Notes: generated from the letters alone by a model not told the origin. 64,000 bases of DNA from Clostridia bacterium (GCA_045537695.1 JAZSQB010000069.1:4730-68729); one strand, 5' to 3'. Positions 2,321 through 17,201 are shown, counted from the first letter of the stretch. Numbers and translations: made by a program.

Positions 2321-3412
2321 TCAGACATTGAAACGGAACAGTACAATATCTCCGTCTTTCATCACATAATCCTTGCCTTCGGAACGGACAAGCCCTTTTT
2401 CCTTTGCCGCAACCATATTGCCGCAAGCGATAAGGTCATCATAATGGATAACTTCCGCACGGATAAAGCCCTTTTCAAAATCCGAATGGATTTTACCTGC
2501 CGCCTGCGGTGCCTTTGTGCCGTTGGTAATTGTCCATGCGCGAACTTCCGGCTCACCGGCAGTCAGATAACTGATTAAGCCGAGCAACTTGTAGCTGGAC
2601 TTTACAATCTTGTCAAGGCCGGATTCTGCCATGCCCATTTCGGCAAGGAATTCCTGCTTTTCTTCCGGCTCAAGCTCTGCGATTTCTTCTTCGATTCTTG
2701 CACAAATGGCAATCACTTCCGAGCCTTCCGCATCTGCAATGCCCTTCACTTCGGCAACCATCGCGTTCTCCGATGCATCTGCCGCTTCATCTTCGGACAC
2801 ATTTGCAGCATACAGTACCGGCTTCATAGTCAGAAGCGCAACTTCGCGCATCATTTCTCTTTCTTCATCGCTGTAGTCAAGCGCACGCGCCGGCTTACCT
2901 TCTTCAAGCCCAGCCTTTACGCGCTCTAAAAGGTCGAGCTCAATCTGGAATTTCTTATCGCCCTTCAGTGCCTTTTTTACGCGGTCAATTCTGCGCTCAA
3001 TCATTTCCATATCGGCAAATACGAGCTCGAGATTGATGGTTTCAATATCACGTGCCGGACCGATGCTGCCGTCCACATGCACGATGTTGGAGTCTTCAAA
3101 GCAACGTACTACATGCACGATGGCATCCACTTCACGGATGTGGGACAGAAACTTATTTCCGAGACCTTCACCGCGGCTTGCGCCCTTTACAAGACCTGCG
3201 ATATCCACAAACTCAATCATCGCCGGCGTAACCTTCTTCGGGTTGTGCATTTTGGTAAGCACATCGAGTCTTTCATCCGGCACAGCTACGATGCCGACAT
3301 TCGGCTCAATCGTACAGAACGGATAGTTTGCAGACTCCGCGCCCGCCTGTGTAATTGCATTAAAAAGTGTGGATTTTCCGACATTCGGCAGACCAACTAT
3401 ACCGAGTTTCAT
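2321..3412 (-). CDS. ychF: redox-regulated ribosome-binding ATPase YchF
   Basis: MKLGIVGLPNVGKSTLFNA P-loop, 363 aa, C-terminal TGS-like ..KDGDIVLFRFNV. Confidence 0.95.
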   Translation of the reverse strand: MKLGIVGLPNVGKSTLFNAITQAGAESANYPFCTIEPNVGIVAVPDERLDVLTKMHNPKKVTPAMIEFVDIAGLVKGASRGEGLGNKFLSHIREVDAIVHVVRCFEDSNIVHVDGSIGPARDIETINLELVFADMEMIERRIDRVKKALKGDKKFQIELDLLERVKAGLEEGKPARALDYSDEEREMMREVALLTMKPVLYAANVSEDEAADASENAMVAEVKGIADAEGSEVIAICARIEEEIAELEPEEKQEFLAEMGMAESGLDKIVKSSYKLLGLISYLTAGEPEVRAWTITNGTKAPQAAGKIHSDFEKGFIRAEVIHYDDLIACGNMVAAKEKGLVRSEGKDYVMKDGDIVLFRFNV

Positions 3413-3558
3413 ATATCTTCATTCTCCTTTATTTTCAAGGGTTTCAAATTGACCTGACACCAATTTGACACCATTACATTTTAATAGTTTCCTACTTTAC
3501 ATCAAAACATTATATCACAATACCGAATAATAGTCAATTATTCTGCGTGTTTTTGTTT
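3413..3558. repeat. att-like repeat copy A (ychF upstream arm + core CTGACACCAATTTGACACCATT + X arm)
   Basis: Core at 3454-3475. X-arm end at 3511-3558. Aligns with copies at 11114-11277 and 16863-17006. Confidence 0.8.
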
Positions 3559-3672
3559 CAATTTTGCTACGATTTTTTCATAGATTAACTTTCTTTTAAC
3601 TTTGTGAATTTATAATAATATTAAAATCAGGAAAATGTTTTGAATTTGACATAGCTCGGGAGGTGATAACAA

Positions 3673-4338
3673 GTGAAATTCAGGCATGAATACAAGCATC
3701 AAATAAACCTTGCTGATATATACGGTCTCAGGACAAGGCTTAGTGCAGTTGCAAAGTACGATCCTAATGCAGGCGAAGATGGGACATATTTTATCAAGAG
3801 CTTATATTTTGATAATTATATGGATAAAGCTCTTCGAGAAAAGATTGATGGATTGAATAAGCGAGAAAAGTTTCGTATCAGGTACTACGGAACCGACACA
3901 TCCTTTATCCGATTAGAGAAAAAAAGCAAAATAAACGGTTTATGTAATAAAGAAAGCTGCAGAATTACTGCTGAGGAATGTCAAAAGCTTATTGTCGGCG
4001 ATATTGAGTTTATGAAGGATAGTGAACATGAGCTGATACGAGAGTTATACTCTAAGATGAAATATCAGGTTCTCCGACCTAAATGTATCGTAGCATACAC
4101 CCGTGAGTGTTTTGTATATCCACCCGGGAATGTGAGGGTAACACTTGATATGAATATCTGTGGCAGTAACAATGTAAGGGAATTCCTGAATCCTGATTTG
4201 CCTTTCTTGCAGACTTATCACGAAGCAATCTTAGAAGTAAAATGGGATGAGTTTCTTCCACAGATTATTAGGGACTGTGTTCAGGTTAAATCAAGAAGAA
4301 GTGCCGCCTTCTCAAAATATGCGGCAATAAGAATATAA
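3673..4338 (+). CDS. VTC-domain (polyphosphate polymerase-like, CYTH/tunnel fold) protein
   Basis: 221 aa. MKFRHEYKH.., SLYFDN, KFRIRYYG, RLEKKSK, EVKWDE pattern typical of bacterial VTC-domain proteins. GTG start with GGGAGGTG RBS upstream. Confidence 0.75.
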   Translation: MKFRHEYKHQINLADIYGLRTRLSAVAKYDPNAGEDGTYFIKSLYFDNYMDKALREKIDGLNKREKFRIRYYGTDTSFIRLEKKSKINGLCNKESCRITAEECQKLIVGDIEFMKDSEHELIRELYSKMKYQVLRPKCIVAYTRECFVYPPGNVRVTLDMNICGSNNVREFLNPDLPFLQTYHEAILEVKWDEFLPQIIRDCVQVKSRRSAAFSKYAAIRI

Positions 4339-4367
4339 ATAAACTTAATGGAAGGAAGTAAAAAATT

Positions 4368-5039
4368 ATGACTTTTTCAGATGTATTTAAATCAAGCTTT
4401 TTATCAAACATCAATTCTTTTTCAACACTTGATGTGCTTTTAGCACTTGGACTTTCCTTTGTTTTGGGACTGTTTATCTTTTTTATTTATAAGAAAACCT
4501 ATCAGGGTGTTATGTATTCCGACTCTTTTGGTGTATCACTTATTGCGATGTCAATGATTACAAGCCTTGTTATTATTGCGGTAACATCAAATGTTGTGTT
4601 GTCACTTGGTATGGTCGGTGCTCTTTCTATCGTTCGTTTCAGAACTGCAATTAAAGAGCCTATGGACATTGCATTTTTATTTTGGTCAATAGCAGTTGGT
4701 ATCGTTCTCGGTGCAGGACTTCTTCCTCTTGCAATTATCGGCTCGGTTATTATCGGAATCATTATCGTAGTTTTCTCAACAAGAAAAATCGGTGATATTC
4801 CTTATATCCTTGTTGTAAACTGCGAAAGCGAAGAAACAGAAAATGAAGCATACGAACTTATTAAAGAAGAAGCAAAGAAAAGCCTTTTGAAATCAAAATC
4901 AATAAATAAATTAGGTGTTGAGCTTACATATGAAGTACGCATCAAAGATGATAACACAGGTTTTGTAAATAAAATCTCAGCTTGCAAAGGTGTAACAAAT
5001 GCAGTTTTAGTTTCCTATAACGGCGAATATATGTCGTAA
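4368..5039 (+). CDS. DUF4956 domain membrane protein
   Basis: 223 aa. About 4-5 hydrophobic helices. LSIVRFRTAIKEPMDIAFLFWSIAVGI signature. Soluble C-terminal tail. Confidence 0.75.
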   Translation: MTFSDVFKSSFLSNINSFSTLDVLLALGLSFVLGLFIFFIYKKTYQGVMYSDSFGVSLIAMSMITSLVIIAVTSNVVLSLGMVGALSIVRFRTAIKEPMDIAFLFWSIAVGIVLGAGLLPLAIIGSVIIGIIIVVFSTRKIGDIPYILVVNCESEETENEAYELIKEEAKKSLLKSKSINKLGVELTYEVRIKDDNTGFVNKISACKGVTNAVLVSYNGEYMS

Positions 5040-5057
5040 GATGAAAGGAGACTTAAA

Positions 5058-5627
5058 ATGCTGAAAAAAGTAATTCCGATAGTCCTTATGCTATGCTTGT
5101 TATTTAGTATAAGCGTAATGGCTGAAAATGAAAATCCGGTAAGTGAAGAAACTATACCCGAAGTATCACAGCAGATGCCGCAAGGTGCCGAGGAACGCCC
5201 ACAAGGCGGTCGTGGTAATATGGGTATGCCACCATCAGACGATATGCAAGGAAGAACTCCGCCGAATATGCCGAGCGGAGAGATGCCATCCGAAGGTATG
5301 AACAGAGGTCAAAGACCTTCAGGTAATTTTACTCCTCCACAGAACAACGATACAAATAATAACGCCGAAGCTACAACGCCTCAAGACGGTGATACGTCAG
5401 CGGAAAATTCGCAAATTCCAAATGGTAATCATCAGTTTGGCGGTCAGATGCCCGGCGGTATGGGCGGATTTCCCGGTAATATGCAAAACTTTAATGGGCA
5501 GACTCAGGAAGAGGTGCCTATGACATTTTTAGGCTTTGTTAAAACATATTCTACTCCTATAACTTCTGTAATTCTTTTAGCGTTGGCATTTGTTTTTGTT
5601 GTTTTTTACAGAAGAAAAAATTATTGA
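5058..5627 (+). CDS. secreted, C-terminally membrane-anchored low-complexity (Met/Pro/Gly/Asn/Gln-rich) protein
   Basis: Signal peptide MLKKVIPIVLMLCLLFSISVMA. About 130 aa disordered with MP and GG(F/M)GG motifs. C-terminal TM ITSVILLALAFVFVVFYRRKNY. Confidence 0.6.
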   Translation: MLKKVIPIVLMLCLLFSISVMAENENPVSEETIPEVSQQMPQGAEERPQGGRGNMGMPPSDDMQGRTPPNMPSGEMPSEGMNRGQRPSGNFTPPQNNDTNNNAEATTPQDGDTSAENSQIPNGNHQFGGQMPGGMGGFPGNMQNFNGQTQEEVPMTFLGFVKTYSTPITSVILLALAFVFVVFYRRKNY

Positions 5628-5675
5628 TATATTGAATGCCAACTAAATCTTGAAGAAAAGGAGGGTGAATATCAT

Positions 5676-7346
5676 ATGCTATCAAGTAAATATATTTCAA
5701 AAATAACGATTATACTTGTATCTGTTGTTTTGATTTTATGCGTTCTTGCAATGACTTTTTATGATAAGCTGTTACCTGTTGTAAATGATATGGGTTACAG
5801 TATGGAATATCAGGACAAGCTCTTTGATACAAGCAATATTATTGATATAAATATCGTTATGGATGAGACACAGTGGAATGAAATGCTCCAAAATGCAAGG
5901 CAGGAACAATATTATGAATGTGATGTTGTGATAAACGGAACTACTTTTAGGCAGGTCGGAATCAGACCAAAAGGAAATACAAGTCTTTCATCCATTGCAA
6001 GCGACCCAGACAATAACAGATATAGTTTTAAACTTGAATTTGACCAATTCGTTGACGGGCAGACTTGTTTCGGACTTGATAAATTAGCATTAAATAATAG
6101 CTATGCTGACACCACTAATATGAAGGAAGCAATCATTTATGATATGTTTCAGTTTTTAGATGCAGATGCTTCTCTTTACAACTATGCTAAGATTTCTGTA
6201 AATAATGAATATTGGGGTGTGTATCTTGCACTTGAAGCCGTTGAAGATAGTTTTATGCTACGCAATTACGGTATGGAAAAGGGATATTTATATAAGCCTG
6301 AAAATATGGGACGTGGCAATAACAATGGCGACAAAAAAGCAGAGGGCAATAATTTTCATGCACCGCCCGAAGGTGGATTTAAAATGCCGGAGAATTTTGA
6401 AAATGGCGCTCAAAACAGACCTCAAATGCCAAACCTTGAAACAAATACTCAAAACGAATCTGCACAAGGAGAAAGAAATCAATTCCCTAATGGTGGATTT
6501 GGCGGCGGCGAAAGAGCCGGACGTGGTGGATTCTTCGGTGGTATGGGTGGCGGAAGTAATTTGAATTATACCGATGATAATTTAGATAGTTATCAGACAA
6601 TATGGAATGGTGAGGTTACTGACAGTACGAAATCAGACCACAAGAGAGTTGTTGATGCACTTAAGAATGTTCACGAAAAAAATAATATTGAAAAATATAT
6701 TGATGTTGACCAAGTATTAAAGTATATGGCGGTTCATAACTTTTCTGTCAATGACGATAGTTTAAGCGGTTCTATGGCTCATAACTATTATCTGTATGAA
6801 GCAAATGGTCAAATCAGCATTTTGCCGTGGGATTACAACCTTGCTTTTGGCGGAATGCATCGTGCTGACGGAACAACCGTTATCAATGAACCTATTGACG
6901 ACTTATGGCAAGGAACAAAGCTTTTGGATTTTGTTTTAGAAAATGAAGAATATAAGGCTCGTTATCACGAGTATTACAATAAACTCGTGAACGAATATCT
7001 GCATGGCGGCAAATTTGAAGAAACATATAACAGAATTACCGGTCAGATAGATGAGCTTGTAAAAACTGATCCGAACAGTATGTATACCTATGAGGAATAT
7101 ACAAAAGGTATAGAAGTTTTATATGATACAGTAATGCTCCGTGCTGAAAGTATTAAAGGTCAACTTAACGGAACCATCCCGTCAACATCAGAAGGTCAGA
7201 AAGCAGATTCTTCAAAGCTTGTTGATGCATCACATCTAAATCTTTCCGATTTGGGACAGTTTAGAATGGGCGGTTTTGGTGGAAATCGAAATAACGGTGA
7301 ATGGGAAATGCCGGAAAGAAATAATCAGAACGTATCAAACGAGTAA
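5676..7346 (+). CDS. CotH family protein (atypical kinase fold), N-terminal membrane anchor
   Basis: 556 aa. FRQVGIRPKGNTS, KLEFDQF, LNNSYADTTNMKEAI, NEYWGVYLALEAVE. Carries a G/N/F/M-rich insert (about aa 205-295). Confidence 0.8.
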   Translation: MLSSKYISKITIILVSVVLILCVLAMTFYDKLLPVVNDMGYSMEYQDKLFDTSNIIDINIVMDETQWNEMLQNARQEQYYECDVVINGTTFRQVGIRPKGNTSLSSIASDPDNNRYSFKLEFDQFVDGQTCFGLDKLALNNSYADTTNMKEAIIYDMFQFLDADASLYNYAKISVNNEYWGVYLALEAVEDSFMLRNYGMEKGYLYKPENMGRGNNNGDKKAEGNNFHAPPEGGFKMPENFENGAQNRPQMPNLETNTQNESAQGERNQFPNGGFGGGERAGRGGFFGGMGGGSNLNYTDDNLDSYQTIWNGEVTDSTKSDHKRVVDALKNVHEKNNIEKYIDVDQVLKYMAVHNFSVNDDSLSGSMAHNYYLYEANGQISILPWDYNLAFGGMHRADGTTVINEPIDDLWQGTKLLDFVLENEEYKARYHEYYNKLVNEYLHGGKFEETYNRITGQIDELVKTDPNSMYTYEEYTKGIEVLYDTVMLRAESIKGQLNGTIPSTSEGQKADSSKLVDASHLNLSDLGQFRMGGFGGNRNNGEWEMPERNNQNVSNE

Positions 7347-7352
7347 ATTCAT

Positions 7353-7379
7353 AAGGTGTGGCGAAGTTCGTCACACCTT
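7353..7379 (+). terminator. possible hairpin after the CotH gene
   Basis: AAGGTGTG (7353-7360) pairs with CACACCTT (7372-7379). Weak T-run. Confidence 0.4.
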
Positions 7380-7461
7380 GAATATTATATAGAAAATGTT
7401 TGGGTTTCTTGTAATTTGAGCTATAATATGTTATAATTGGTTATGCAAAAGAGGTGAAATT

Positions 7462-8133
7462 ATGCGACTTTTGGTTGTTGAAGATGAAAAGCATCTTAAT
7501 AAAACACTAACGGAAAGACTGACAAAAATCGGTTATACCGTTGACAGTTGCTTTGATGGCGAGGATGCTTTGTACTATATAGAAAACACACAATATGACG
7601 GGATTATACTTGATGTTATGATGCCGAAGATTAATGGCTTTGATGTTCTTCGAATAATGCGTGAAAAGAAAATATTAACTCCTGTTTTGATGCTCACGGC
7701 GAAGGATTCGGATGAAGATATAATAATGGGACTTGATACCGGAGCAAATGATTATCTTACAAAACCATTTTCCTTTGACATCCTCTGTGCAAGAATCAGG
7801 GCGATGCTCCGAGTAAAAGAAAATATTACGGGAAGTGTGCTTGAAATTGCGGATTTGAGCATAGATACAACCACAAGACTTGTAAAGCGTGGAGATACAG
7901 TAATTGAGCTTTCGTCAAAGGAATACTCTGTACTTGAATACCTTATGCGAAATAAAGGCATTATCGTATCAAAAGAAAAGATTGAAGAAAATATTTGGAA
8001 CTATGAATACGAGGGTTCGAGCGATGTTATAAAGGTATATATCCACCACCTGCGTAAAAAGATTGATGATAACTACGAGGAAAAATTGCTCCATACCATA
8101 AAAAATGTGGGGTATGTGATAAAGGAAGATTAA
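7462..8133 (+). CDS. OmpR-family response regulator
   Basis: MRLLVVEDE.. receiver domain, DVMMPKINGF, winged-helix C-terminus (VYIHHLRKKID). Confidence 0.9.
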   Translation: MRLLVVEDEKHLNKTLTERLTKIGYTVDSCFDGEDALYYIENTQYDGIILDVMMPKINGFDVLRIMREKKILTPVLMLTAKDSDEDIIMGLDTGANDYLTKPFSFDILCARIRAMLRVKENITGSVLEIADLSIDTTTRLVKRGDTVIELSSKEYSVLEYLMRNKGIIVSKEKIEENIWNYEYEGSSDVIKVYIHHLRKKIDDNYEEKLLHTIKNVGYVIKED

Positions 8134-8134
8134 G

Positions 8135-9484
8135 ATGAAAAAGCCTACTTCTATAAAAACTAGAATAACAATATGGTACACAACACTTATGTTTGTACTT
8201 GTATTAGTTGTGCTTTCTTTAGTTGGCGGACTTTCTTATCAACTTTCCATAGACAGTATTGAAAAAGATGTTATTCTTCAGGTTACACAGGTGACTGAAA
8301 AGCTATCCAAAAGACAGCCCGGTGTATTTGAAATAGTTGAAAATAAAGAAGAATTTAAAAATGTATCCATTTATGAGATTGGCGGGAAATATCTTGTCGG
8401 GCAGTATAATTACGATGTTGTAAACATCCCGTTTGAAGAAGGTATTCCCCGAAGAGAAAATATAGACGGGAAAGATTATATCGTTTATGATACACGCACT
8501 CCGGGACCCCCCGGGATGCGTGGCGGCTTTTGGATAAGAGGTGTGGAATCGGTTAATTCTACGATGCTTTTGGGACGTTCTGCGATTATAATAATGCTTA
8601 TTTTAATACCGCTTATCCTATTTTTAACAGCACTTGGCGGATATTATATTACTAAAAGAGCATTTCGACCTGTAAACAATATTACAAAAACTGCAAATGA
8701 TATTTCTGCACAAAAGGATATTTCACGACGAATTGAAATATCTCCCGATTCAAAAGAAGATGAACTTCATCACTTGTCAGTTACTCTTAATAAAATGCTT
8801 GATAAAATTGAAAACCTTATCAAGCAGGAAAAGCAGTTTACTTCGGATGCTTCTCACGAACTAAGAACACCAATAAGCGTTATTCTTGCACAAGGCGAAT
8901 ATCTTTTGGATATTGCAAAGGATGAAAAAGAAAAAGAACTTGCTCAGACAATAGTTGATAAATCAAAACAGGTTTCAAAGCTTGTATCAAGACTTTTGCT
9001 CCTTGCAAGAATAGACCAAAACAGACAAAAATTCAATAAGGAAAAGGTTGACCTCGGTGTGATTATTGATGTTGCAGTTGACAGTATGAAAGAATTGGCA
9101 GCACAGAAAGAAATTCTGCTTTTCTCAAATGTAGCCGAAGGTATTATTGTGGATGCAGATGAACCATTGCTTCTATCTGCAATTACAAATCTTATCAGCA
9201 ACGGAATTAAGTACGGCAAAGAGTCCGGTCATGTATCTGTATCAGCTTCAAAGATTGGTGACAGAACAGAAATCATAGTTGCAGATAACGGCGTAGGAAT
9301 ATCAGGAGAAAACATTGATAAGATATGGACTCGCTTCTATCGTGTTGATGATGTCCGCAATGACGAATACGGAAGCAGTGGATTAGGTCTTTCAATGGTG
9401 AAAAGTATAATCGAACTACACGGTGGAGAGATTACTGTAAAAAGCAATATCGGTCAGGGAACAGAATTCAGAATTATGTTATAA
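8135..9484 (+). CDS. sensor histidine kinase (2 TM, HAMP, HisKA, HATPase_c)
   Basis: H-box FTSDASHELRTP. N-box NLISNGIKYG. G-boxes DNGVGI and GSSGLGLSMV. Confidence 0.9.
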   Translation: MKKPTSIKTRITIWYTTLMFVLVLVVLSLVGGLSYQLSIDSIEKDVILQVTQVTEKLSKRQPGVFEIVENKEEFKNVSIYEIGGKYLVGQYNYDVVNIPFEEGIPRRENIDGKDYIVYDTRTPGPPGMRGGFWIRGVESVNSTMLLGRSAIIIMLILIPLILFLTALGGYYITKRAFRPVNNITKTANDISAQKDISRRIEISPDSKEDELHHLSVTLNKMLDKIENLIKQEKQFTSDASHELRTPISVILAQGEYLLDIAKDEKEKELAQTIVDKSKQVSKLVSRLLLLARIDQNRQKFNKEKVDLGVIIDVAVDSMKELAAQKEILLFSNVAEGIIVDADEPLLLSAITNLISNGIKYGKESGHVSVSASKIGDRTEIIVADNGVGISGENIDKIWTRFYRVDDVRNDEYGSSGLGLSMVKSIIELHGGEITVKSNIGQGTEFRIML

Positions 9485-9642
9485 ATGTAGAATTTGTTTA
9501 AATAAGTTTTTATCTAAAAAGAAATTTTACAATATAAACAAACAGAGTCCCCGAGAATTTTGAACAGAACCAGTAAAAACGGACAATGACAAAAAAGACC
9601 TCCTATGGTAGAATAAAATAAACTACCATAGGAGGATTTTTT

Positions 9643-9978
9643 ATGCCGAGAAGTTACAGACATATGAAAGATTATGAATTAGAAATATTGGAGTTAAAAG
9701 CAGAAGGAAAGACCAATCGTGAAATATGCGAAAAGTTTGGTTTTGAAATGAAACAAATCAAGAATTTTATCAATAGATACAACAAAAATCAAAGGAAGAT
9801 AGCGGCAGGGATTTCAATTAAACGAAAAGGCAGACCGCTAAAAAACTATGTTGTTAGCGAACAAGAAAAAGCTGCAGAATTAAGATATATTCTTGCTCGT
9901 AAAGATGCAAAGATTAGAACATTAGAAATGGAAAATGAACTGATGCGGGATTTTCTCTCGCTCACAGAAAGGAAGTGA
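9643..9978 (+). CDS. IS3-family transposase OrfA (HTH)
   Basis: 111 aa with an HTH then a leucine-zipper-like tail. RBS AGGAGG upstream. Confidence 0.85.
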   Translation: MPRSYRHMKDYELEILELKAEGKTNREICEKFGFEMKQIKNFINRYNKNQRKIAAGISIKRKGRPLKNYVVSEQEKAAELRYILARKDAKIRTLEMENELMRDFLSLTERK

Positions 9979-10829
9979 GAGCAAGGGTAAAATATATGGT
10001 TATCTATCGTCATAAGGAAAAGTATTCGATTAGTGAGATGTGTAGATTTTTTGATGTATCAAGAAGTGGTTATTACAGTTATGTATCCCGTATGGAATTA
10101 CCAGCAAAAGATTTGCCTTTAGCTGAGAAGATAATGGAATGTCAAGAAAAATGTGGCAAAACTTATGGCTATCGTAGAGTACATATATGGCTTGAAAGAC
10201 AAGGAATACATCACAATCCAAAAACAATACTTCGAGTAATGCAGAAATACAACATGTTATCTGATGTCAGAAGAAAGAAATATCGTAATTATGGAGAGAG
10301 TTTACACCGCTACCCAAATTTGCTAAATAGAGATTTCAACGCAGAAAGACCAAATCAAAAATGGGTTACAGATATTTCATATATTAAAACTTATCAAGGA
10401 ACCTTGTATTTATCTGTAATTAGGGATTTATACGACAACAGTATTATTGCATATAAGATGGGAACAGAACAAAACACAAACCTTGTACTCTCAACAATTA
10501 GAGAGGCAAGGAAAAGAGAAAAGGTCACTACAGAGCTGCAACTCCATAGTGACCAAGGCTTTCAGTATACTTCACACGCGTACTTTAAGCTAACTAAATC
10601 ATACAACATTACGCCGTCAATGTCAAGAAAAGGTAATCCATACGATAATGCTTTAGCCGAAAATTTCTTCTCTATTCTTAAAACAGAGTGTATTTATCGG
10701 ACAAAGATTCAAACATACGATGACGCACGGCAGCTAATAGATGAATACATATATTTTTATAACAATGAAAGAATTCAATTAAAAACAAAACTGACACCGT
10801 ATGAAAAACGATGTCAGTATGTTGCATGA
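9975..10829 (+). CDS. IS3-family transposase OrfB (DDE integrase core), probably made as an OrfAB fusion by -1 frameshift
   Basis: WVTDISY, HSDQGFQYTS, NALAENFFSILKTE. The -1 frame is open from 9939. Confidence 0.85.
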   Translation: MRARVKYMVIYRHKEKYSISEMCRFFDVSRSGYYSYVSRMELPAKDLPLAEKIMECQEKCGKTYGYRRVHIWLERQGIHHNPKTILRVMQKYNMLSDVRRKKYRNYGESLHRYPNLLNRDFNAERPNQKWVTDISYIKTYQGTLYLSVIRDLYDNSIIAYKMGTEQNTNLVLSTIREARKREKVTTELQLHSDQGFQYTSHAYFKLTKSYNITPSMSRKGNPYDNALAENFFSILKTECIYRTKIQTYDDARQLIDEYIYFYNNERIQLKTKLTPYEKRCQYVA

Positions 10830-10930
10830 TTATTTGATAATTACTACCGTAGTAGTCTTTTTTGTGCTGTCTGCACAAAATGGTGCAGTTCATTTTTCTC
10901 GGGGACTTTTATCATAATTAAATATATTTT

Positions 10931-10988
10931 TGTGTCAAACTCTTTAAATAGTCTTTTATACTCCCTGACACCAATCCTGACACCAATT
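10931..10988. repeat. att-like repeat copy B1 (Y arm + core variant CTGACACCAATCCTGACACCAATT)
   Basis: Y arm TGTGTCAAACTCTTTAAATAGTCTT.. matches 16863-16896. Core at 10965-10988. Confidence 0.7.
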
Positions 10989-11113
10989 TTTTATGAAATA
11001 TATAGTGTTATACGGGAATATATAGAATTCAGCTTTTGTGAAACCCCCTTGTATATAGCCATTTAGAAAGCTTTATAAGGATATATAGACTTATAGAAAA
11101 AAGTACATGAGTT

Positions 11114-11130
11114 ACTATACCTAATTTCAT
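11114..11130 (-). pseudogene. relic of a ychF 5' end (codons 1-6, MKLGIV)
   Basis: Minus strand ATGAAATTAGGTATAGT versus the genuine ATGAAACTCGGTATAGT at 3412-3396 (15/17 identical). Same upstream RBS block. Similarity ends after codon 6. Confidence 0.55.
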
Positions 11131-11277
11131 AAGTTTTAAATCTCCTTTATTTTCAAGGGTTTCAGAATTGGTCTGACACCAATTTGACACCATTATAATT
11201 TTATTGTTGATAAATTTTATACTAAATAATCATATCACAATGTTGGATAATAGTCAATTATTCTGCGTGTTTTTGTT
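11114..11277. repeat. att-like repeat copy B2 (relic ychF start + upstream arm + core + X arm)
   Basis: 24/24 and 22/22 identical blocks with copy A. Last 31 nt of the X arm are identical to copy A. Confidence 0.8.
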
Positions 11278-11425
11278 CTGATTTTTGTGTTTCTGATTGA
11301 GAAATGTTATAAAACGTACTTTTTAGATGTTAAATAGTTTGTGAGTAAGATTATACCTTAAACCGCACCTCAGACGGTAGTGGATTAATTACAGATATGA
11401 CTGCATGCCTTTTAACGAGCGAAAA

Positions 11426-12304
11426 TTAATTTTTATAATGAATATTTTTATATTCACGAGGAGACATACCCATTATTTTATTAAAATTACGGTTAAAAGT
11501 AGAAAAATCATTATATCCGCACAGTCCGTAAATGGCGGTGATTTTATAGCCTTTTTTTATATATGAAGTTGCCGCCTTTATACGGCATGTGTTTAAGTAA
11601 TCATTAAATGAATGACCTGTTGTTTTAAAAAACAGTGCACAGAAATTGCTCTTTGACATAGCGGACTTCTTCGAAATTTCGTTTAATGTAATTTTATCTG
11701 CAAAATTATTTTCTATGTATTCGACGCAGTGGAGAACAAACTGTCTGTTGTCTTCAAAATGCTCTGATATATCGTGTTCATCCTTTGTGAAATACTCGCG
11801 GGCAAGCATTGTAACAAGTAACTGTGCATAGGCTTGTACCGTATCGTAATAAGCGATTGGCTTTTGGTTGAATTCTTTTAAAATGTGCGCCATTATGTTT
11901 TCAATGTAGAAAATTTCTTCAGAATTCATCAAAACTTTTGGTTTTACATATATGTCTTCGTTTGATTGCAGCGAACGAAGAAAATTTCTTGCAAGCTTGT
12001 TGGTGGTATACTGATCAAAAAACAGTTCCTCCATAAACGAAAAAGAGTAAAACACTGTGTTGTGTAACGGAGTTATGCAGTGTGTTACACCGGGCGGAAT
12101 AATAAACATATCTCCTTGCGTTAAGTGCGCTGACTCATTTTCAACATTGTGTTCAAGGCTTCCCTTTGATATATAATAAATCTGAAAATATTCGTGAGTG
12201 TGCGGTTTTTGCGCTTCTGTTACCTTGGCGAGTTTTTGAATATGAAAGTTTTCGGTGGAGTTTTCATAATAAGAAAGAACAAAATTTTTGACATCCATCA
12301 TCAT
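11426..12304 (-). CDS. AraC-family transcriptional regulator (cupin sensor + HTH)
   Basis: 292 aa. N-terminal cupin-like (HTHEYFQIYYI). C-terminal AraC HTH (GYNDFSTFNRNFNKIMGMSPREY). Confidence 0.9.
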   Translation of the reverse strand: MMMDVKNFVLSYYENSTENFHIQKLAKVTEAQKPHTHEYFQIYYISKGSLEHNVENESAHLTQGDMFIIPPGVTHCITPLHNTVFYSFSFMEELFFDQYTTNKLARNFLRSLQSNEDIYVKPKVLMNSEEIFYIENIMAHILKEFNQKPIAYYDTVQAYAQLLVTMLAREYFTKDEHDISEHFEDNRQFVLHCVEYIENNFADKITLNEISKKSAMSKSNFCALFFKTTGHSFNDYLNTCRIKAATSYIKKGYKITAIYGLCGYNDFSTFNRNFNKIMGMSPREYKNIHYKN

Positions 12305-12340
12305 TCACCTCTGTTTGCATTATAACATCCTTTTAGAATT

Positions 12341-12372
12341 AATGCAATATAAAAAAGAAAAAATGCAATATA
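12341..12372. promoter_or_regulatory. candidate operator: perfect direct repeat AATGCAATATA x2, 21 bp apart, in the divergent araC / atuA-like intergenic region
   Basis: AATGCAATATA at 12341-12351 and 12362-12372. Confidence 0.45.
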
Positions 12373-12413
12373 TATGCTTTTTGTTGTGCTAAAATTAAAA
12401 TGAGGTGATAGAT

Positions 12414-13727
12414 ATGAAAATAGTTGCATTAAACGGACTTTTAGGGTATGGGTACAGCAAAGAGGCTTTGGATGTCGCTTTTTCAGAAAAGGTTGATTAT
12501 CTTGGCGTGGATGCAGGCTCAACCGATCCCGGGCCGTATTATCTTGGAAGTGGTAAATCATTTACAGACCGCGGTGCGGTAAAAAGAGATGTATCCTTGG
12601 CTTTGCCAAAGGCATTGGAACATAAAGCGCCGTTTATCATCGGCAGTGCGGGCGGCGCAGGCAGCAGTGAACATGTTGCATGGCTGAAAGAAATCATTTT
12701 AGAGATTGCAAAAGAAAAAAAGCTTAATTTTAAATTGGGTACAATTTTAAGTGATGTATCCACTGCGTACGTACTTGAAAAATACGATAACGGTAAGTTG
12801 ATAGATATGAGTAGCGAGTTTCCTGCAGATAAAAACGCAATCCAAGACAGCGTACGTATTGTGAGTCAGATCGGTATCGCGCCGATTATAAAGCTGCTGG
12901 AAGAAAAGTGCGATGTTATTTTATGCGGACGAGCGTGCGATACGGCAATTTATGCTGCACCGTGCATATATGAAGGCTATAAAGAAGGTCTTGCTTTTCA
13001 TATGGCAAAGATTATGGAATGCGGTGCTATGTGTTCCGAGCCGGTTGCGGCGGCTGATGTTATGCAGGCGTATATGTATGACGATTACTTTGAGCTTCGT
13101 CCTGCAAATCCAATCAGAAAATGTACGGTTGACAGGGTAGCAGCACATACACTTTATGAACAATCGAATCCTTATTTAATATTTGAGCCTGATGGTGTTT
13201 GTAATCTTACAAACTCTGTGTTCACACAAGTTGACGAAAGAACGGTGAGAGTTTCCGGCTCGGTATTTGAAGAAGCGCCGGAAAAGACCTTAAAGTTGGA
13301 AGGTGTCAGATGTGCAGGTTTCAGAACAATATGCCCTGCCACAATTTATGATCCGAAAACCATAGAAAATTTTGATTTTATTGTTAATACAGTAACAGAA
13401 TTTGTTAAAGAAAATACAAAAGAGACAATGCCTGATAACAGTTATAAGCTTTTCTTTAAAACCAGCGGCGGAAAAGAAAGTTCTATGGGTGTTGTAATAG
13501 ACGTTGTAGGAAAAACACAGGAAATTGCTGATACAGTATGTGCACTGATCAGAAGCAGAATGCTTCACTGTGACTATGTAGGAAGAAAATCATCCGCAGG
13601 CAATCTTGCATTTCCATTTTCACCTTCAGATATTCACGTGGGGGCTGTTTATGAATTTTCCGTGTTCCATCTAACAAAGGTGAATTCTCTTATGGAAACG
13701 GCAAAAATTCTGATCGAGGAGGTTTAA
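12414..13727 (+). CDS. AtuA-like (DUF1446, acyclic terpene utilisation family) protein
   Basis: About 437 aa. N-terminal ..NGLLGYGYS..LGVDAGSTDPGPYYLGSG typical of DUF1446. ATG at 12414 has GAGGTG 8 nt upstream (the track start 12405 is a GTG). Confidence 0.7.
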   Translation: MKIVALNGLLGYGYSKEALDVAFSEKVDYLGVDAGSTDPGPYYLGSGKSFTDRGAVKRDVSLALPKALEHKAPFIIGSAGGAGSSEHVAWLKEIILEIAKEKKLNFKLGTILSDVSTAYVLEKYDNGKLIDMSSEFPADKNAIQDSVRIVSQIGIAPIIKLLEEKCDVILCGRACDTAIYAAPCIYEGYKEGLAFHMAKIMECGAMCSEPVAAADVMQAYMYDDYFELRPANPIRKCTVDRVAAHTLYEQSNPYLIFEPDGVCNLTNSVFTQVDERTVRVSGSVFEEAPEKTLKLEGVRCAGFRTICPATIYDPKTIENFDFIVNTVTEFVKENTKETMPDNSYKLFFKTSGGKESSMGVVIDVVGKTQEIADTVCALIRSRMLHCDYVGRKSSAGNLAFPFSPSDIHVGAVYEFSVFHLTKVNSLMETAKILIEEV

Positions 13728-13728
13728 A

Positions 13729-14028
13729 ATGAAAAAACTGATTGATTACACAAAAATTTTAAGAAGCAAAAATGCAGGTCCTCTTTTTATTACATTTGAT
13801 TTGATTTTCCATACAAAAGAAGATATGCAGTATGTAGAACAAAAGCTTACAAAAGCAGACATTGTAAAAGCTTATGATGTTGCCGAGGAGAAAATAGATA
13901 TTATCGCCTACGGTGTTGTAAATTCCATTAAAATAACTTTCCCAAGAAAAAATATAAGCGGCAGTCTTGCAGATAACGATATTTACGGATGTCAGCAACA
14001 TATGCCGCTGGCAAATATTGAAATATAG
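13729..14028 (+). CDS. DUF4387 domain protein (usual partner of AtuA-like proteins)
   Basis: 99 aa. ..LRSKNAGPLFITFDLIF.. motif. Starts 1 nt after the previous stop. Confidence 0.65.
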   Translation: MKKLIDYTKILRSKNAGPLFITFDLIFHTKEDMQYVEQKLTKADIVKAYDVAEEKIDIIAYGVVNSIKITFPRKNISGSLADNDIYGCQQHMPLANIEI

Positions 14029-14037
14029 CGGGGGATT

Positions 14038-15240
14038 ATGGCAATGTATGCAGATAAAGATTATATAATTTCGTTAAGACGTGAAATGCACGAATATCCT
14101 GAAATCGGGTTTGATTTACCTAAAACAATTGCGGTTGTAAAAAGAGAGCTTGATAAACTCGGTATTGAATATACTACAAAATACGGAGAATCAAGTGTAG
14201 TAGGTATTATAAACCCTGATAAAAAACATTTTACAATTGGTATTCGTGCAGATATGGATGCTTTGTTGATTGAAGAAAAGACAGATTTACCTTTTAAATC
14301 AAAAATCAAAGGGCAGATGCACGCCTGTGGACACGACGCGCATACAGCAATGCTTTTAGGTACTGCCAAAGCCTTAAAAGAAATGGAAGATAAGATTTGC
14401 TGCAGAGTTATGCTTGTTTTCCAGCCTAGCGAGGAAGGTATTAGAAGCGGCGCGGAGGCACTTGTAGCAGGCGGTCTTATGGATGAAATTGACGTTATCA
14501 TCGGTATGCATATTGAAAATTGGTTGGCATCCGGCTGCATCGGGGTATGCAAGGGAAGTTCGATGGCTTCCAGCCGTAGTTTCAAGCTTGATTTTTACGG
14601 AAAGACTGCGCACGCAACGTTACCGCACTCGGGCACTGATGCGTTGGCGACTGCCATCCGCACATACAATAACATTCAGTATATGCTTGGAAGAGAAATC
14701 AATCCGTTTTCGAAATATGTGTGTTCTGTAGGTAAACTTACGGGTGGCACTTCGCAGAATATTATAGCAGATCATGCCTATATGCTCGGCACAATCAGAA
14801 CATTTGATATGGAGTTGGATGCGTTCTTAATCAGAAGGATTGAAGAAATCGCGAAGAATGCCGCTGCAGAAGTGGGCGCAAAAGCGGAACTGGATACAAG
14901 TCTGAAGGCGTTTGTTGTATATAACAATCCCTATATTTCTGATTTGGTTCTTTCTGCAGGTGAAAAAATCGTTGGCAAGGAAAGGGTAGTAAATATGCCG
15001 GAAAAGCTTAGTTCGGAAGATTTTTCGCAGTATCTTACCAAAAAGCCCGGTGTGTTTTTAAGACTCGGCACACGCAATGAGGAAAAGGGGTGTGTGACCC
15101 TGCCGCATAATAATGATTTTTTAATAGACGAAGATGCGTTCCCTGTCGGAACTGATGTATGTGTTCAGTTTGTACTTGATAATATGGACGGTATAGATAT
15201 GGAGAGCGTTGAAAAATCGGATGAAAGGAAAAAGAGGTGA
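14038..15240 (+). CDS. M20D-family amidohydrolase (N-acyl-amino-acid deacylase / hippurate hydrolase type)
   Basis: HACGHDAH metal-binding motif, FQPSEE, about 400 aa. Alternative start ATG at 14044. Confidence 0.85.
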   Translation: MAMYADKDYIISLRREMHEYPEIGFDLPKTIAVVKRELDKLGIEYTTKYGESSVVGIINPDKKHFTIGIRADMDALLIEEKTDLPFKSKIKGQMHACGHDAHTAMLLGTAKALKEMEDKICCRVMLVFQPSEEGIRSGAEALVAGGLMDEIDVIIGMHIENWLASGCIGVCKGSSMASSRSFKLDFYGKTAHATLPHSGTDALATAIRTYNNIQYMLGREINPFSKYVCSVGKLTGGTSQNIIADHAYMLGTIRTFDMELDAFLIRRIEEIAKNAAAEVGAKAELDTSLKAFVVYNNPYISDLVLSAGEKIVGKERVVNMPEKLSSEDFSQYLTKKPGVFLRLGTRNEEKGCVTLPHNNDFLIDEDAFPVGTDVCVQFVLDNMDGIDMESVEKSDERKKR

Positions 15241-15246
15241 AACTTT

Positions 15247-16164
15247 GTGATTAAAACAGAAGTTTATGAACAGGCGCTTTTTGAAACAATTAAACGCGGC
15301 GCGACGGAAATTTCTCCGGATGTAAAAGAAGCGTTTATGAAGGCAATAGCGAGAGAAGAAAATGTTGATGCACAAAAAGGATTGAAAGCCACGCTGGAAA
15401 GCATGGAAATGTCGAAGGTGCGGGAAAATCCGCTTTGTGTGGATACGGGCTGGCCTATTTTCTATTTTAAGGTTGGTAATCAGTGTGAGATAGAAGGCGG
15501 ATTTGTAGAGCTCGAGAATGCTGCTCGCCGTGCGGTTGCAAAGGCTACAGAACTCGGTTATTTAAGAGCTACAATGAAACATCCTTTAACAGGATATGAC
15601 CCGGGAAACAACATAGGTATGAATATTCCTGATTTTACATATCAGTTTGTTGACGGTGATGCAATCGAGATGTCCTATGCAGCAAAAGGTGGCGGTAGTG
15701 AATGCTTCGGCGGCACAAGACACAGAATCGTCGCTTTTGCGGATGGAATAAAAGGTATTGAGAAATTTGTAATTGACAGCTTTGTGGCATCGGCAAGAGC
15801 GGGTGCGGTATGTCCTCCGTCAGTGCTTGGTATCGGTATCGGCGGAACAGCAAATGTTGCTGCAAATCTTGCTAAAGAGGCAGCGTGCTTACGAACTGTC
15901 GGCTCAAAGCACCCTGACCCGATGTTTGCAAAAATAGAAGAAGATTTATATGAAGCTATTAACAGTCTTGGAATAGGTATTTTAGGCGCAGGAGGAAGCA
16001 CCTCTGTACTTGCTGTAAATGTTGAATATGCATATACTCATATTGCGGGAATTGCCTGTGCAACGAGTACTAACTGTATGGTTGCGCGCCGTGCATCTAC
16101 AAGAATTGATGCAGACGGTAAAGTAACAAAAATGATAAGTCCCAACTGGTTTGGCGACAGATAG
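15247..16164 (+). CDS. Fe-S type hydro-lyase alpha subunit (fumarate hydratase / tartrate dehydratase N-terminal domain family)
   Basis: PLCVDTG, AAKGGGSE, CPPSVLGIGIGGT and a conserved late Cys (TNCMVARR). GTG start. Confidence 0.8.
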   Translation: MIKTEVYEQALFETIKRGATEISPDVKEAFMKAIAREENVDAQKGLKATLESMEMSKVRENPLCVDTGWPIFYFKVGNQCEIEGGFVELENAARRAVAKATELGYLRATMKHPLTGYDPGNNIGMNIPDFTYQFVDGDAIEMSYAAKGGGSECFGGTRHRIVAFADGIKGIEKFVIDSFVASARAGAVCPPSVLGIGIGGTANVAANLAKEAACLRTVGSKHPDPMFAKIEEDLYEAINSLGIGILGAGGSTSVLAVNVEYAYTHIAGIACATSTNCMVARRASTRIDADGKVTKMISPNWFGDR

Positions 16165-16174
16165 GAGGATACAT

Positions 16175-16798
16175 ATGGCAGAATACCATTTAACAGCGCC
16201 TTTAAAGGATGAAGATGTTAAAAAGTTAAAACTTGGCGATACCGTATACATTAGCGGTGAGTGTTTTACTTGCCGTTCAAGACTTCAAAAGTATATTTTC
16301 GATGAAGGAAATGTGTTGCCTTTTGATACAAAGGACAGAAACATTTTAATCCATAACGGACCTATTGTTGTCAAAGAGGACGGAAAGTGGCGTTTAGTTT
16401 CCTTTATGCCCACATCGAGCATCCGTTTTGAAAAATGGGGTGCAAAAAGTGTTTCTGAATGGGGGCTTAAAATGATTGTAGGTAAAACTACAATGGGTGA
16501 AAAAACGGCACATATGATGAAAGAAAAGAAGTGCGTTCACGTATCTCCGCGTTCTGTAAGCCCTAACCTCTGGATAGATTCAATAGAAGTGCAGGATGTT
16601 TATCTTTATGATGAACTTGGAAGAATTGAAGCTGCGTGGTTCTTTAAAATGAATGAATTAGGACCCTTTATCGTTGATATCGATGCAGAGGGTAATAATT
16701 ATTTTGACCATCTTGATAAAGATATAGCCGACAGAAAAGAGAAAGCTTTAAAAAAACTGGGTATTGATAATACTTTTGAATTTACAAAATTATATTAA
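16175..16798 (+). CDS. Fe-S type hydro-lyase beta subunit (fumarase C-terminal domain family)
   Basis: LKLGDTVYISGECFTCRS.., IVGKTTMG, AAWFFKMNELGPFIVDIDAEGNN. ATG at 16175 is preceded by AGGAGG. Confidence 0.8.
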   Translation: MAEYHLTAPLKDEDVKKLKLGDTVYISGECFTCRSRLQKYIFDEGNVLPFDTKDRNILIHNGPIVVKEDGKWRLVSFMPTSSIRFEKWGAKSVSEWGLKMIVGKTTMGEKTAHMMKEKKCVHVSPRSVSPNLWIDSIEVQDVYLYDELGRIEAAWFFKMNELGPFIVDIDAEGNNYFDHLDKDIADRKEKALKKLGIDNTFEFTKLY

Positions 16799-16804
16799 CG
16801 AGAA

Positions 16805-16836
16805 AAGGACAATGGAAATCAATCCATTGTCCTTTT
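16805..16836 (+). terminator. rho-independent terminator ending accessory module 2
   Basis: AAGGACAATGGA (16805-16816) pairs with TCCATTGTCCTT (16823-16834), then TTTT. Confidence 0.8.
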
Positions 16837-16862
16837 AATAATTTCAGGTGTTTTTTAGTTGT

Positions 16863-17006
16863 GTGTCAAACTCTTTTAAATGGTCTTATATACGCCCTGA
16901 CACCAATTTGACACCATTTGATTTTGAATTTCTCATCACAAATTTATACGCCAAAATATTATATCACACTGTTAAATAACAGTCAATTATTCCTCCTCTT
17001 TTTGTT
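16863..17006. repeat. att-like repeat copy C (Y arm + core + X arm in one piece)
   Basis: Y arm 16863-16896 matches B1. Core 16897-16918 is identical to the A and B2 cores. X-arm end 16960-17006 matches A at 37/47. Confidence 0.75.
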
Positions 17007-17201
17007 CCAAACCTACAATCACCTTTTGCCAATAATTACATATTAGCTCAAAAAACCATTTGAGATTTCAAAAAAATCCGTTTCACAGAAAATCGAATTA
17101 TAGGTACAATTAAAAACAAATGAAAATTTGAATCTTTTCCTTTACATTTCACTTTGGCTAATGTATAATATTAACATCAAATGAAGAATGGAGGGTATAC
17201 T

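Follow-up and report, generated by a model that had tools for sequence, protein, structure and literature searches.

Probable integrase-less remnants of a site-specific element family, arranged in tandem at the ychF start of a Clostridia bacterium

The cis-mobilizable elements (CIMEs) at the fda gene of Streptococcus thermophilus, known from the ICESt1/ICESt3 model, are integrase-less, flanked by attachment (att) sites, arranged in tandem and in principle mobilizable by an intact relative; composite arrays of the staphylococcal cassette chromosome (SCC), which uses serine recombinases, occur at rlmH. Tn916 and Tn1549 are conjugative elements of low target specificity, which insert into AT-rich sites. 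The gene ychF is the target of a defective or satellite prophage of pneumococci (PPH005, PhiBM6001.4, Javan 759), which inserts directly upstream with its integrase adjoining ychF and can be excised; its integration rearranges the ychF promoter, lowers ychF expression and affects colonisation (PMC6375853, PMC10383233, PMC8637289). In Actinomycetota the gene is also a target of pipolins that carry serine recombinases (PMC11551731). Here we describe a region upstream of ychF in a stretch of 64,000 nucleotides from a Clostridia bacterium (GCA_045537695.1, JAZSQB010000069.1:4730-68729; the whole stretch is called the window), which appears to hold remnants of integrative elements at this gene.

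The region from 3413 to 17006 (13.6 kb) is most probably a tandem array of two integrase-less remnants of one family of site-specific integrative elements, followed by a third scar at the right end. The agent can be named with good confidence as a family of tyrosine integrases with a Tn916/Tn1549-like catalytic core, inserting in an 18-nt block at the ychF start. The kind of element is an ordinary one; the family itself is undescribed. A first-pass annotation had pointed out an AT-rich accessory region with four related segments (A, B1, B2 and C), framed by att-like repeats, and had suggested tandem site-specific insertions at the ychF 5' end. All four segments were found at the positions given there, and the composition is not uniform: windowed GC contents were 0.31-0.43 between 3.4 and 17 kb and 0.46-0.50 in the flanks, and the GC skew reverses its sign at the left and at the right border. 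The suggestion of tandem insertions was supported by an empty site in relatives and by the same scaffolds, which border different cargo at the ychF gene of about 30 further species.

The segments are related through a 22-nt core, CTGACACCAATTTGACACCATT, which starts at 3454, 11173 and 16897, always on the plus strand and without mismatches; no further copy with up to 5 mismatches was present in the 64 kb (100 shuffled sequences gave 0, and the expected number was 0). In A, next to ychF, the core (3454-3475) contains a pair of TGACACCA half-sites with 11-nt spacing as putative arm-type integrase sites, and its reverse complement codes for NGVKLVS and part of a G codon. The arm beyond the core, termed X, extends to 3558. 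A and B2 share, as noted before, a block of 24/24 nucleotides (3423-3446 and 11141-11164) and the final 31 nt (3527-3557 and 11247-11277). B1 and C had been described as sharing a different left arm joined to the same core. The arm, here called Y, is indeed common to both (TGTGTCAAACTCTTT(T)AAAT, 91% identity over 46 nt with a 1-nt indel), but the core is not, since B1 holds a variant, core' (CTGACACCAATCCTGACACCAAT, 10965-10987), whose two TGACACCA half-sites are spaced 12 nt and not 11 nt. The octamer TGACACCA occurs 10 times in the window, all on one strand, with 8 of the 10 copies inside the repeat segments.

The target gene, ychF (2321-3412, minus strand; 363 amino acids; Pfam MMR_HSR1 and YchF-GTPase_C), is followed by birA. 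An empty site was found in six assemblies of relatives whose YchF is 95-98% identical (L055/56, L065, L067/68, L069-71; L numbers denote loci in other genomes). The order there is a gene for a 2-hydroxyacid dehydrogenase, about 80 nt, and ychF with a native promoter, TTGCAA-17-TACAAT, and core, X and Y are all absent. The homology of these relatives to the window, as detected by blastn, stops exactly at 3412, the start codon of ychF. The window has instead a ychF leader with ribosome-binding site (RBS) at 3413-3453 (minus strand), which would be element-borne and belongs to a short-leader class; similar leaders occur in many species with divergent ychF, and the close relatives with empty sites have no such leader. 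In a related long-leader class of 12 species the pairwise identity was 77% for ychF codons 7-106, 95% for leader and core, and 98% for the 3' 300 nt of the integrase gene. Because of this jump in identity at the ychF start, everything to the right of it is taken as mobile DNA.

The first-pass annotation had also recognised a second, diverged ychF start within the array. The minus-strand sequence ATGAAATTAGGTATAGT at 11114-11130 matches the genuine start (3396-3412, codons 1-6, ATGAAACTCGGTATAGT) at 15/17 positions, and the likeness stops past codon 6. Together with the adjoining A at 11113 this relic reads ATGAAATTAGGTATAGTA, the same 18 nt as in the naive bacterial attachment site (attB) of L055 and L069; in the relatives ychF begins with ATGAAATTAGGTATAGTAGG, 18 nt identical to the relic region in B2. 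The predicted crossover, as judged from these alignments, sits in this 18-nt block, called O, which spans ychF codons 1-6, and the "relic ychF start" is the same block; at the left end (attL) O lies at 3396-3412. The 22-nt core is not the crossover, because the naive attB sites do not possess it. The following layout fits the data: attB would consist of ychF, O and the native leader, and the attachment site of the element (attP) of Y, core', spacer, O, leader, core, integrase gene and integrase promoter. That a donor-type ychF start was carried in by mobile DNA, as proposed earlier, agrees with the recurrence of the relic, its GGTACATGA flank and a 125-nt spacer in five other species, and with the identity values of leader and core against those of the ychF coding sequence. 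The relic may derive from a displaced host ychF 5' end or from an element-borne block; both readings of the 18 nt were considered.

Eight Clostridia (L001, L002, L003, L006, L022, L026, L036, L044) carry an open reading frame (ORF) of 405 amino acids between the X promoter and the ychF leader. It reads towards ychF and ends with ...QDQNGVKLVSGQ*, and the core constitutes its last codons, NGVKLVSG. The product of L026 matched Pfam Phage_integrase (1e-28) and Phage_int_SAM_3; its best match in the PDB was the integrase (Int) of Tn1549 (6EN0, E=9e-25). Between species these integrases are 97-100% identical, and the phage collection contained no integrase with more than 33% identity to that of L026. 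An X-type promoter is located just upstream of the gene, 1272 nt from the core. L020, L050 and L038 have partly deleted copies, which represent intermediates of decay. In the window no integrase of this family was detected (tblastn; a hidden Markov model of three integrases against the six-frame translation, all E>1; ORFs beyond 22 kb were inspected by eye only and not scanned for domains), in agreement with the earlier statement that a transposase of the IS3 family is the only recombinase-type enzyme visible. Since the integrase was found only in homologous elements elsewhere, the copies in the window are remnants and not complete tyrosine-recombinase elements, and the agent, previously left unnamed, can be assigned through the intact gene of those elements.

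The X arms appear to be scars of integrase deletions which kept the integrase promoter, because they align to its 5' untranslated region (UTR) and promoter and, in C and most other species, to the 3' end of the gene. X(A) (3476-3558, minus strand) has a -35 box TTGACT (3537-3532), a 17-nt spacer and a TG-extended -10 box TATAAT (3514-3509); no other sequence of the region matches sigma-70 promoters better (11/12 with TG), and its distal part aligns to the L026 integrase 5'UTR and promoter with z=6.6. Each X arm is the best minus-strand sigma-70 match of its region, with the pattern TTGACT-17-TA(T/A)(G/A)AT and the TG extension, and all three face ychF; X(A) would now drive this gene. In C and in most scars of other species the alignment includes the 25 nt of the integrase coding region that adjoin the core (z 3.6-5.3; X(C) z=4.1). 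The distance from core to -35 box is mostly 75-78 nt, with variants of 44-90 nt. In L026 (3732-3850) the integrase promoter is bracketed by inverted Y-like motifs, AAGAGTTTGACACA in the 5'UTR and TGTGTCAAATATCTT past the -35 box; this pair could be an operator for autoregulation.

TGACACC repeats flank block O on both arms: core' at about -150, the core at +45 to +66, and an inverted copy in Y. They are putative arm-type integrase binding sites, overlapping the C-terminal codons of the integrase. Similar repeats were found directly past the stop codons of integrases with 24-26% identity to the L026 integrase, namely three in L039 and pairs near both element ends in L005. PF02920, the arm-binding domain of Tn916, was detected in the L039 integrase with E=6e-23 and in the L026 integrase with E=0.002, where the score of 18 bits is below the cut-off of 27. 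The DR2 arm sites of Tn916 differ from the TGACACC repeat.

Between the two modules lies an attP-like junction. B1 (10931-10987, plus strand), the right end of element 1, consists of the Y arm (10931-10964), with an inverted GTGTCAAA, and core'; it is kept in L004, L015, L027 (twice), L048 and L072. It is followed by the conserved 125-nt spacer (10988-11113, plus strand), which would be the P-arm of an attP-like site and ends with GTACATGAGTT; six junctions from five other species were aligned with that of the window, and L072 has the spacer, too. Then comes the relic (11114-11130, minus strand), block O of the junction, and finally B2 (11131-11277, minus strand), the left end of element 2, with leader (11131-11172), core (11173-11194) and X(B2), whose -35 box is at 11257-11252 and whose -10 box, TATGAT, is at 11234-11229. 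The order Y, core', spacer, GGTACATGA, relic, leader, core and X is kept as a unit in L004, L015, L027 and L048, and L008 has a B2-type scaffold, followed by an AraC gene, directly at its own ychF. The sequence from B1 through spacer and relic to B2 (10931-11277) would thus be the kind of attP-like junction that two elements in tandem should form. An ORF of 54 amino acids (11029-11193, minus strand; MKLGIVTHV...) is opened by the promoter, leader, RBS and relic start of B2, runs through the spacer and has no Pfam match; it is probably a by-product of the junction.

Element 1 extends from attL (3396-3558) to this junction (10931-11277). The right junction of element 2, C (16862-17006, plus strand), is degenerate: Y (16862-16896) is fused to the core (16897-16918) and X(C) (-35 box 16986-16981, -10 box 16963-16958), and spacer, block O and leader are all missing. 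The same type of junction occurs in L017 (twice) and L052. Without O, segment C cannot serve as a substrate of the proposed recombination and is therefore a fossil. Terminal right-hand sites (attR), in which the relic is followed by the native leader without a core, were seen in L004 and L072; self-blast and a motif scan of the whole window gave no extra copies of Y, core', spacer, relic or X, hence the window contains no terminal attR. A third junction type, terminator-TTTCAT-leader-core, without Y, core' and spacer, was observed in L024 (2376-7170, re-oriented coordinates), where the scaffold next to ychF consists of relic, leader and X, and a core was absent even with 3 mismatches allowed. 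Evidently the scaffolds decay in several ways.

The att-like framing of the island, as first described, holds for its left border at ychF; on the right there is no intact island border, but a rearrangement junction (17007-17184). Synteny with the pheS-pheT-ireB-GH88-helix-turn-helix (HTH)-malQ-metK locus of the relatives, and not with the 2-hydroxyacid dehydrogenase side of ychF, begins at 17185, the start of the GH88 gene, and extends at least as far as 25955. Likewise, the empty ychF site that had been anticipated in relatives was found, but its neighbour is the dehydrogenase gene and not the GH88 side. By tblastn, no 2-hydroxyacid dehydrogenase, SpoVAC or LeuRS was detected in the 64-kb window. 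This result, together with the synteny on the GH88 side, means that a different part of the chromosome adjoins the array. The orientations of the genes would be compatible with an inversion that had one of its breakpoints between 16.9 and 17.18 kb. In comparison with five related lineages (L055, L065, L067, L073, L074), the ychF-birA side is here joined to GH88-HTH-malQ-metK; a MatE gene is situated between HTH and malQ in L073 and is missing in the window. Exact-protein look-ups with the YchF and GH88 sequences of the window matched no record.

The observations can be combined into the following scheme. On the side facing ychF, an intact element would carry a substitute start, RBS and leader for this gene, then the integrase gene, which would be read in the direction of ychF and have the "22-nt core" as its last 8 codons, and the integrase promoter (X); its distal end would be formed by a terminator, the Y arm, the second TGACACC pair (core'), the 125-nt spacer and a copy of the 18-nt block. 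Integration would sever ychF from its native promoter and place it under the promoter of the element. In the window the integrase genes would have been deleted, each deletion fusing the core to the promoter (X). C could then be a junction minus the crossover block, with the original right-hand attR and its chromosomal neighbour replaced by the rearrangement. Element 2 would have been inserted first and element 1 second; the modules may have arrived as integrase-less units helped in trans, or through homologous exchange.

The distribution of the core was surveyed by an exact 20-nt search, with one genome per species, in 185,579 species genomes. There were 54 loci, 1-2 per genome and mostly in metagenome-assembled genomes (MAGs) of gut and rumen Clostridia; the core was located 42-66 nt upstream of the ychF start in 25/54 loci, and 8 more were within ychF-type scaffolds. 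A single metagenome scan with a 27-nt spacer pattern yielded one locus, L072, and the comparison of the core with IMG/VR viral contigs gave no match. Loci outside ychF are L012, L013, L016 and L037, further L007, L025, L030, L033, L034, L040, L047 and L049, and those of Agathobacter (L009, L032, L051, L053), where the exact 20-nt core is situated between smpB and ssrA, with 128 nt between it and the 5' end of the tmRNA downstream. The core was also found outside ychF in MAGs of Actinomycetota, Planctomycetota and Pseudomonadota, and a third TGACACC repeat frequently accompanied it. In the blocks read, the vicinity of the non-ychF loci contained no integrase homologue.

Several points weigh against the interpretation as remnants of integrase-built elements. 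It does not account for the 21 matches of the core outside any ychF context. The apparent conservation of the core is partly an effect of ascertainment, because all loci were found by an exact core match. No integrase is in the window, which was the part of the genome searched, so that activity here is at most a possibility. In A and B2 significant alignment to the 3' end of the integrase gene has been lost in the stretch just past the core; the status of these two as deletion scars would rest on the core, the promoter part and the likeness to scars of other species. Hints as to the exchange point inside O are in conflict, since the relic of L072 points to the codon 6 edge and the variation at codon 3 of attL to the start-codon edge. 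Finally, the right ends of the integrase-bearing elements lie beyond the 8-kb blocks which were read, so that the ending with Y, core' and spacer was deduced from integrase-less relatives.

Among other explanations, import by homologous recombination has to be taken most seriously, although we consider it rather doubtful: the array would have been brought in ready-made, or its cargo swapped, via the conserved scaffolds (ychF 5' end, leader-core-X, Y-core'), with no part played by the integrase in this lineage. The lack of an integrase in the window would be understandable, and scars of similar length recur in many species on cassettes that differ in their cargo, which fits a spread after loss of the integrase. 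The close relatives have naive sites, and none of the short-leader scaffolds sampled contains an intact integrase. Module 1 cargo occurs elsewhere without scaffolds, which means that cargo and scaffold move independently. Such an import leaves unexplained, however, the complete attP-like internal junction with its 18-nt block and the exact end of the relatives' homology at the start codon, and the right side of the array, being a rearrangement junction, has no homologous anchor. Besides, it would concern the last step only and is compatible with elements originally built by an integrase. That the 22-nt core itself was the crossover, with modules bounded from core to core, ychF5'-core as attL and Y-core-X as attR, was the literal layout of the first-pass annotation, and it was suggested by the core being the longest exact repeat, with three copies, by the Y-core-X form in C and in junctions of L017 and L052, and by the integrase-bearing element of L005 with TGACACC pairs near both ends. 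We regard it as improbable: besides the naive ychF sites of six related assemblies, which are devoid of any core, the terminal attR sites of L004 and L072 have the relic, and not a core, at the joint with the native leader, the leader and the core belong to the element and show 95% identity between species, and direct repeats that belong to the 3' end of an integrase coding sequence are atypical of a crossover site of tyrosine recombinases.

A cis-regulatory leader that ychF had received by vertical descent, be it an operator or an RNA element, and that a local segmental duplication had multiplied to give A, B2 and C, with the AT-rich genes as unrelated insertions, would account for the strong promoter, the leader and the tandem repeat with 11-nt spacing, which is reminiscent of response-regulator boxes, and the core upstream of ssrA in Agathobacter might be seen in the same light. 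The closest relatives do not have the segment, though; its conservation between species far exceeds that of ychF, it is contiguous with the integrase gene in eight species, and the B1-B2 composite recurs in other species and is therefore not a local duplication. Rfam covariance models, applied to 1-22000 of the window with E<=1, gave no match in the repeat segments; a tRNA and chance matches to microRNAs and small RNAs lie outside them. A regulatory leader is thus very unlikely. The least probable explanation, hardly worth upholding, is a dispersed repeat of the type of repetitive extragenic palindromes or miniature inverted-repeat transposable elements (REP/MITE), unconnected with the island borders. 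Short AT-rich repeats with internal direct repeats are indeed present at several places in the accessory region, but instead of the high copy number of such repeats there were three copies in 64 kb, at one locus and in one orientation, and the 54 loci, 1-2 per genome, in the species survey; terminal inverted repeats and target-site duplications are absent. The core was also considered as an operator for response regulators (Pho-box-like) of the adjoining VTC and two-component genes; this was rejected, because genes of this kind are missing downstream of B2 and C and because the core codes for part of the integrase.

The array of probable element remnants resembles the pneumococcal prophage in its site-specific insertion by ychF, in the adjacent integrase and in the rearranged ychF promoter. 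In pneumococci, however, attB is intergenic (TTAGCACTTTATCCCTTTTTGTGTTA, with a 14-bp core CCCTTTTTGTGTTA), unrelated in sequence, and does not cover the start codons of ychF; the cargo consists there of phage-satellite genes and here of regulators and metabolic operons, and tandem integrase-less arrays have not been described there. Similarities to Tn916 and Tn1549 are the Tn1549 integrase as closest structure, the L039 integrase with PF02920, and repeats on both attP-like arms, whereas the ychF family is specific for the start of one gene, no conjugation genes were seen, and the N-terminus of the L026 integrase matches PF02920 only weakly. As in CIMEs and SCC arrays, integrase-less, att-flanked derivatives are stacked at one chromosomal site, and by analogy mobilization by an intact relative might be possible in principle. 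Among the loci read, in blocks of 8 kb, no intact integrase-bearing element stood in tandem with integrase-less cassettes. The remnants are flanked by att sites, have no integrase or transfer genes, and are derived by deletion, as seen from the scars and the decay series L020, L050 and L038. Unlike fda and rlmH, which are hit at their 3' ends, the target loses its 5' end and promoter to the element.

Similar to integrons, there is a fixed platform, composed of an integrase, an outward promoter and an insertion site, and an array of integrase-less cassettes, each with a recombination site. Membership in the integrons was rejected on account of the integrase, which is not IntI (NCBIfam integrase_gron, 48.9 bits versus a cut-off of 265), and of the type of junction, which measures about 350 nt, has arm-type sites in the style of lambda or Tn916, and no attC hairpins. 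Also, the cassettes are operons of several genes with their own regulators and face against the platform promoter. Tentatively, and with more doubt than trust at present, one may think of the ychF 5' end in many gut and rumen Clostridia as a cassette platform, at which one ychF-proximal integrase captures, stacks and exchanges integrase-less modules in trans, each with a regulator and a metabolic or surface operon and each bounded by a complete attP-like site (Y-core'-spacer-block-leader-core-X). If true, this would be an integron-like capture of genes based on an integrase of the Tn916/lambda type with arm sites, and the outward promoter of the integrase would at the same time serve ychF. In any case an undescribed integrase lineage, with an attachment site at the ychF start codon, would be added for uncultured Oscillospiraceae, Congzhengia and further Clostridia of gut and rumen, and the anatomy of the att sites should allow islands at the ychF hotspot to be delimited automatically in MAGs. 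Since the element replaces the 5' end and the promoter of a gene for a conserved housekeeping GTPase, the expression of ychF would be tied to mobile DNA; the pneumococcal prophage is the one analogue that has been studied by experiment.

A different kind of insertion was noticed in L066 (2088-10000), which shares its assembly with L074 and whose YchF is 97% identical: about 8 kb between the 2-hydroxyacid dehydrogenase gene and ychF, with genes for a histidine kinase, a response regulator, a Na/Pi-PhoU protein, OAD beta, an amidohydrolase and a metallophosphatase, bordered by a duplicated pseudo-ychF 5' fragment (its start now being ATGTAA) and a duplicated 3' end of the dehydrogenase gene. As none of the att scaffolds is present, this insertion must have used the same hotspot by another mechanism.

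The cargo of module 1 (3576-9484, plus strand; Pfam) comprises genes for VTC (3673-4338), DUF4956 (4368-5039), an unknown protein of 189 amino acids (5058-5627), CotH (5676-7346), an OmpR-type response regulator (7462-8133) and a histidine kinase (8135-9484). It is 92-96% identical in L075-L077. In L075 (1-6700) the module 1 cargo (92%) is situated by tRNA-Gln and tRNA-Lys, between direct repeats of about 210 bp which include a terminator and the tRNA-Lys 3' end, and ychF scaffolds are absent; from this placement it follows that the cargo uses a second, tRNA-linked landing site. Between the kinase gene and the Y arm an IS3-family insertion sequence is located (9546-10907, plus strand; orfA 9643-9978, orfB 9975-10829; Pfam rve, rve_2, HTH_21), with 27-nt terminal inverted repeats (9546-9572 and 10881-10907) and no obvious target-site duplication (flanks CAG and TTT). 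It occupies the position of the terminator hairpin of other elements.

Module 2 (11383-16798, plus strand except where stated; Pfam) contains genes for an AraC regulator (11426-12304, minus strand), an AtuA-like protein (12405-13727), DUF4387 (13729-14028), an M20 amidohydrolase (14038-15240) and fumarate-hydratase-type alpha (15247-16164) and beta (16151-16798) subunits. At its AraC end the module shares 96% identity with L008 and 86% with L017, and core-X adjoins it directly in both. The module is closed by a hairpin terminator (16803-16836), GGACAATGGA...TCCATTGTCC, which was read by eye, as a simple terminator scan missed it; this hairpin also precedes Y in L017, L027 and L052. Judged by its distribution, the cargo of both modules is mobile. 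The stacked modules are complete units of regulator and operon, namely VTC/CotH with a two-component system and an AraC-controlled AtuA/amidohydrolase/hydratase cluster, with Tdh/Kbl and GlpA/GlpP units elsewhere, and as such they illustrate the transfer of metabolic traits between species of these Clostridia. In the integrase-bearing elements of L026 and L001 Pfam recognised in the cargo only a C5 methylase fragment and a CxxCxxCC protein; these elements may be phage satellites, integrative mobilizable elements (IMEs) or of another kind. Cargo in other species consisted of LysR with threonine dehydrogenase, aminotransferase and transporter genes, of TetR with a surface protein of 1904 amino acids, or of GlpA-like dehydrogenases with GlpP and a HAD hydrolase.

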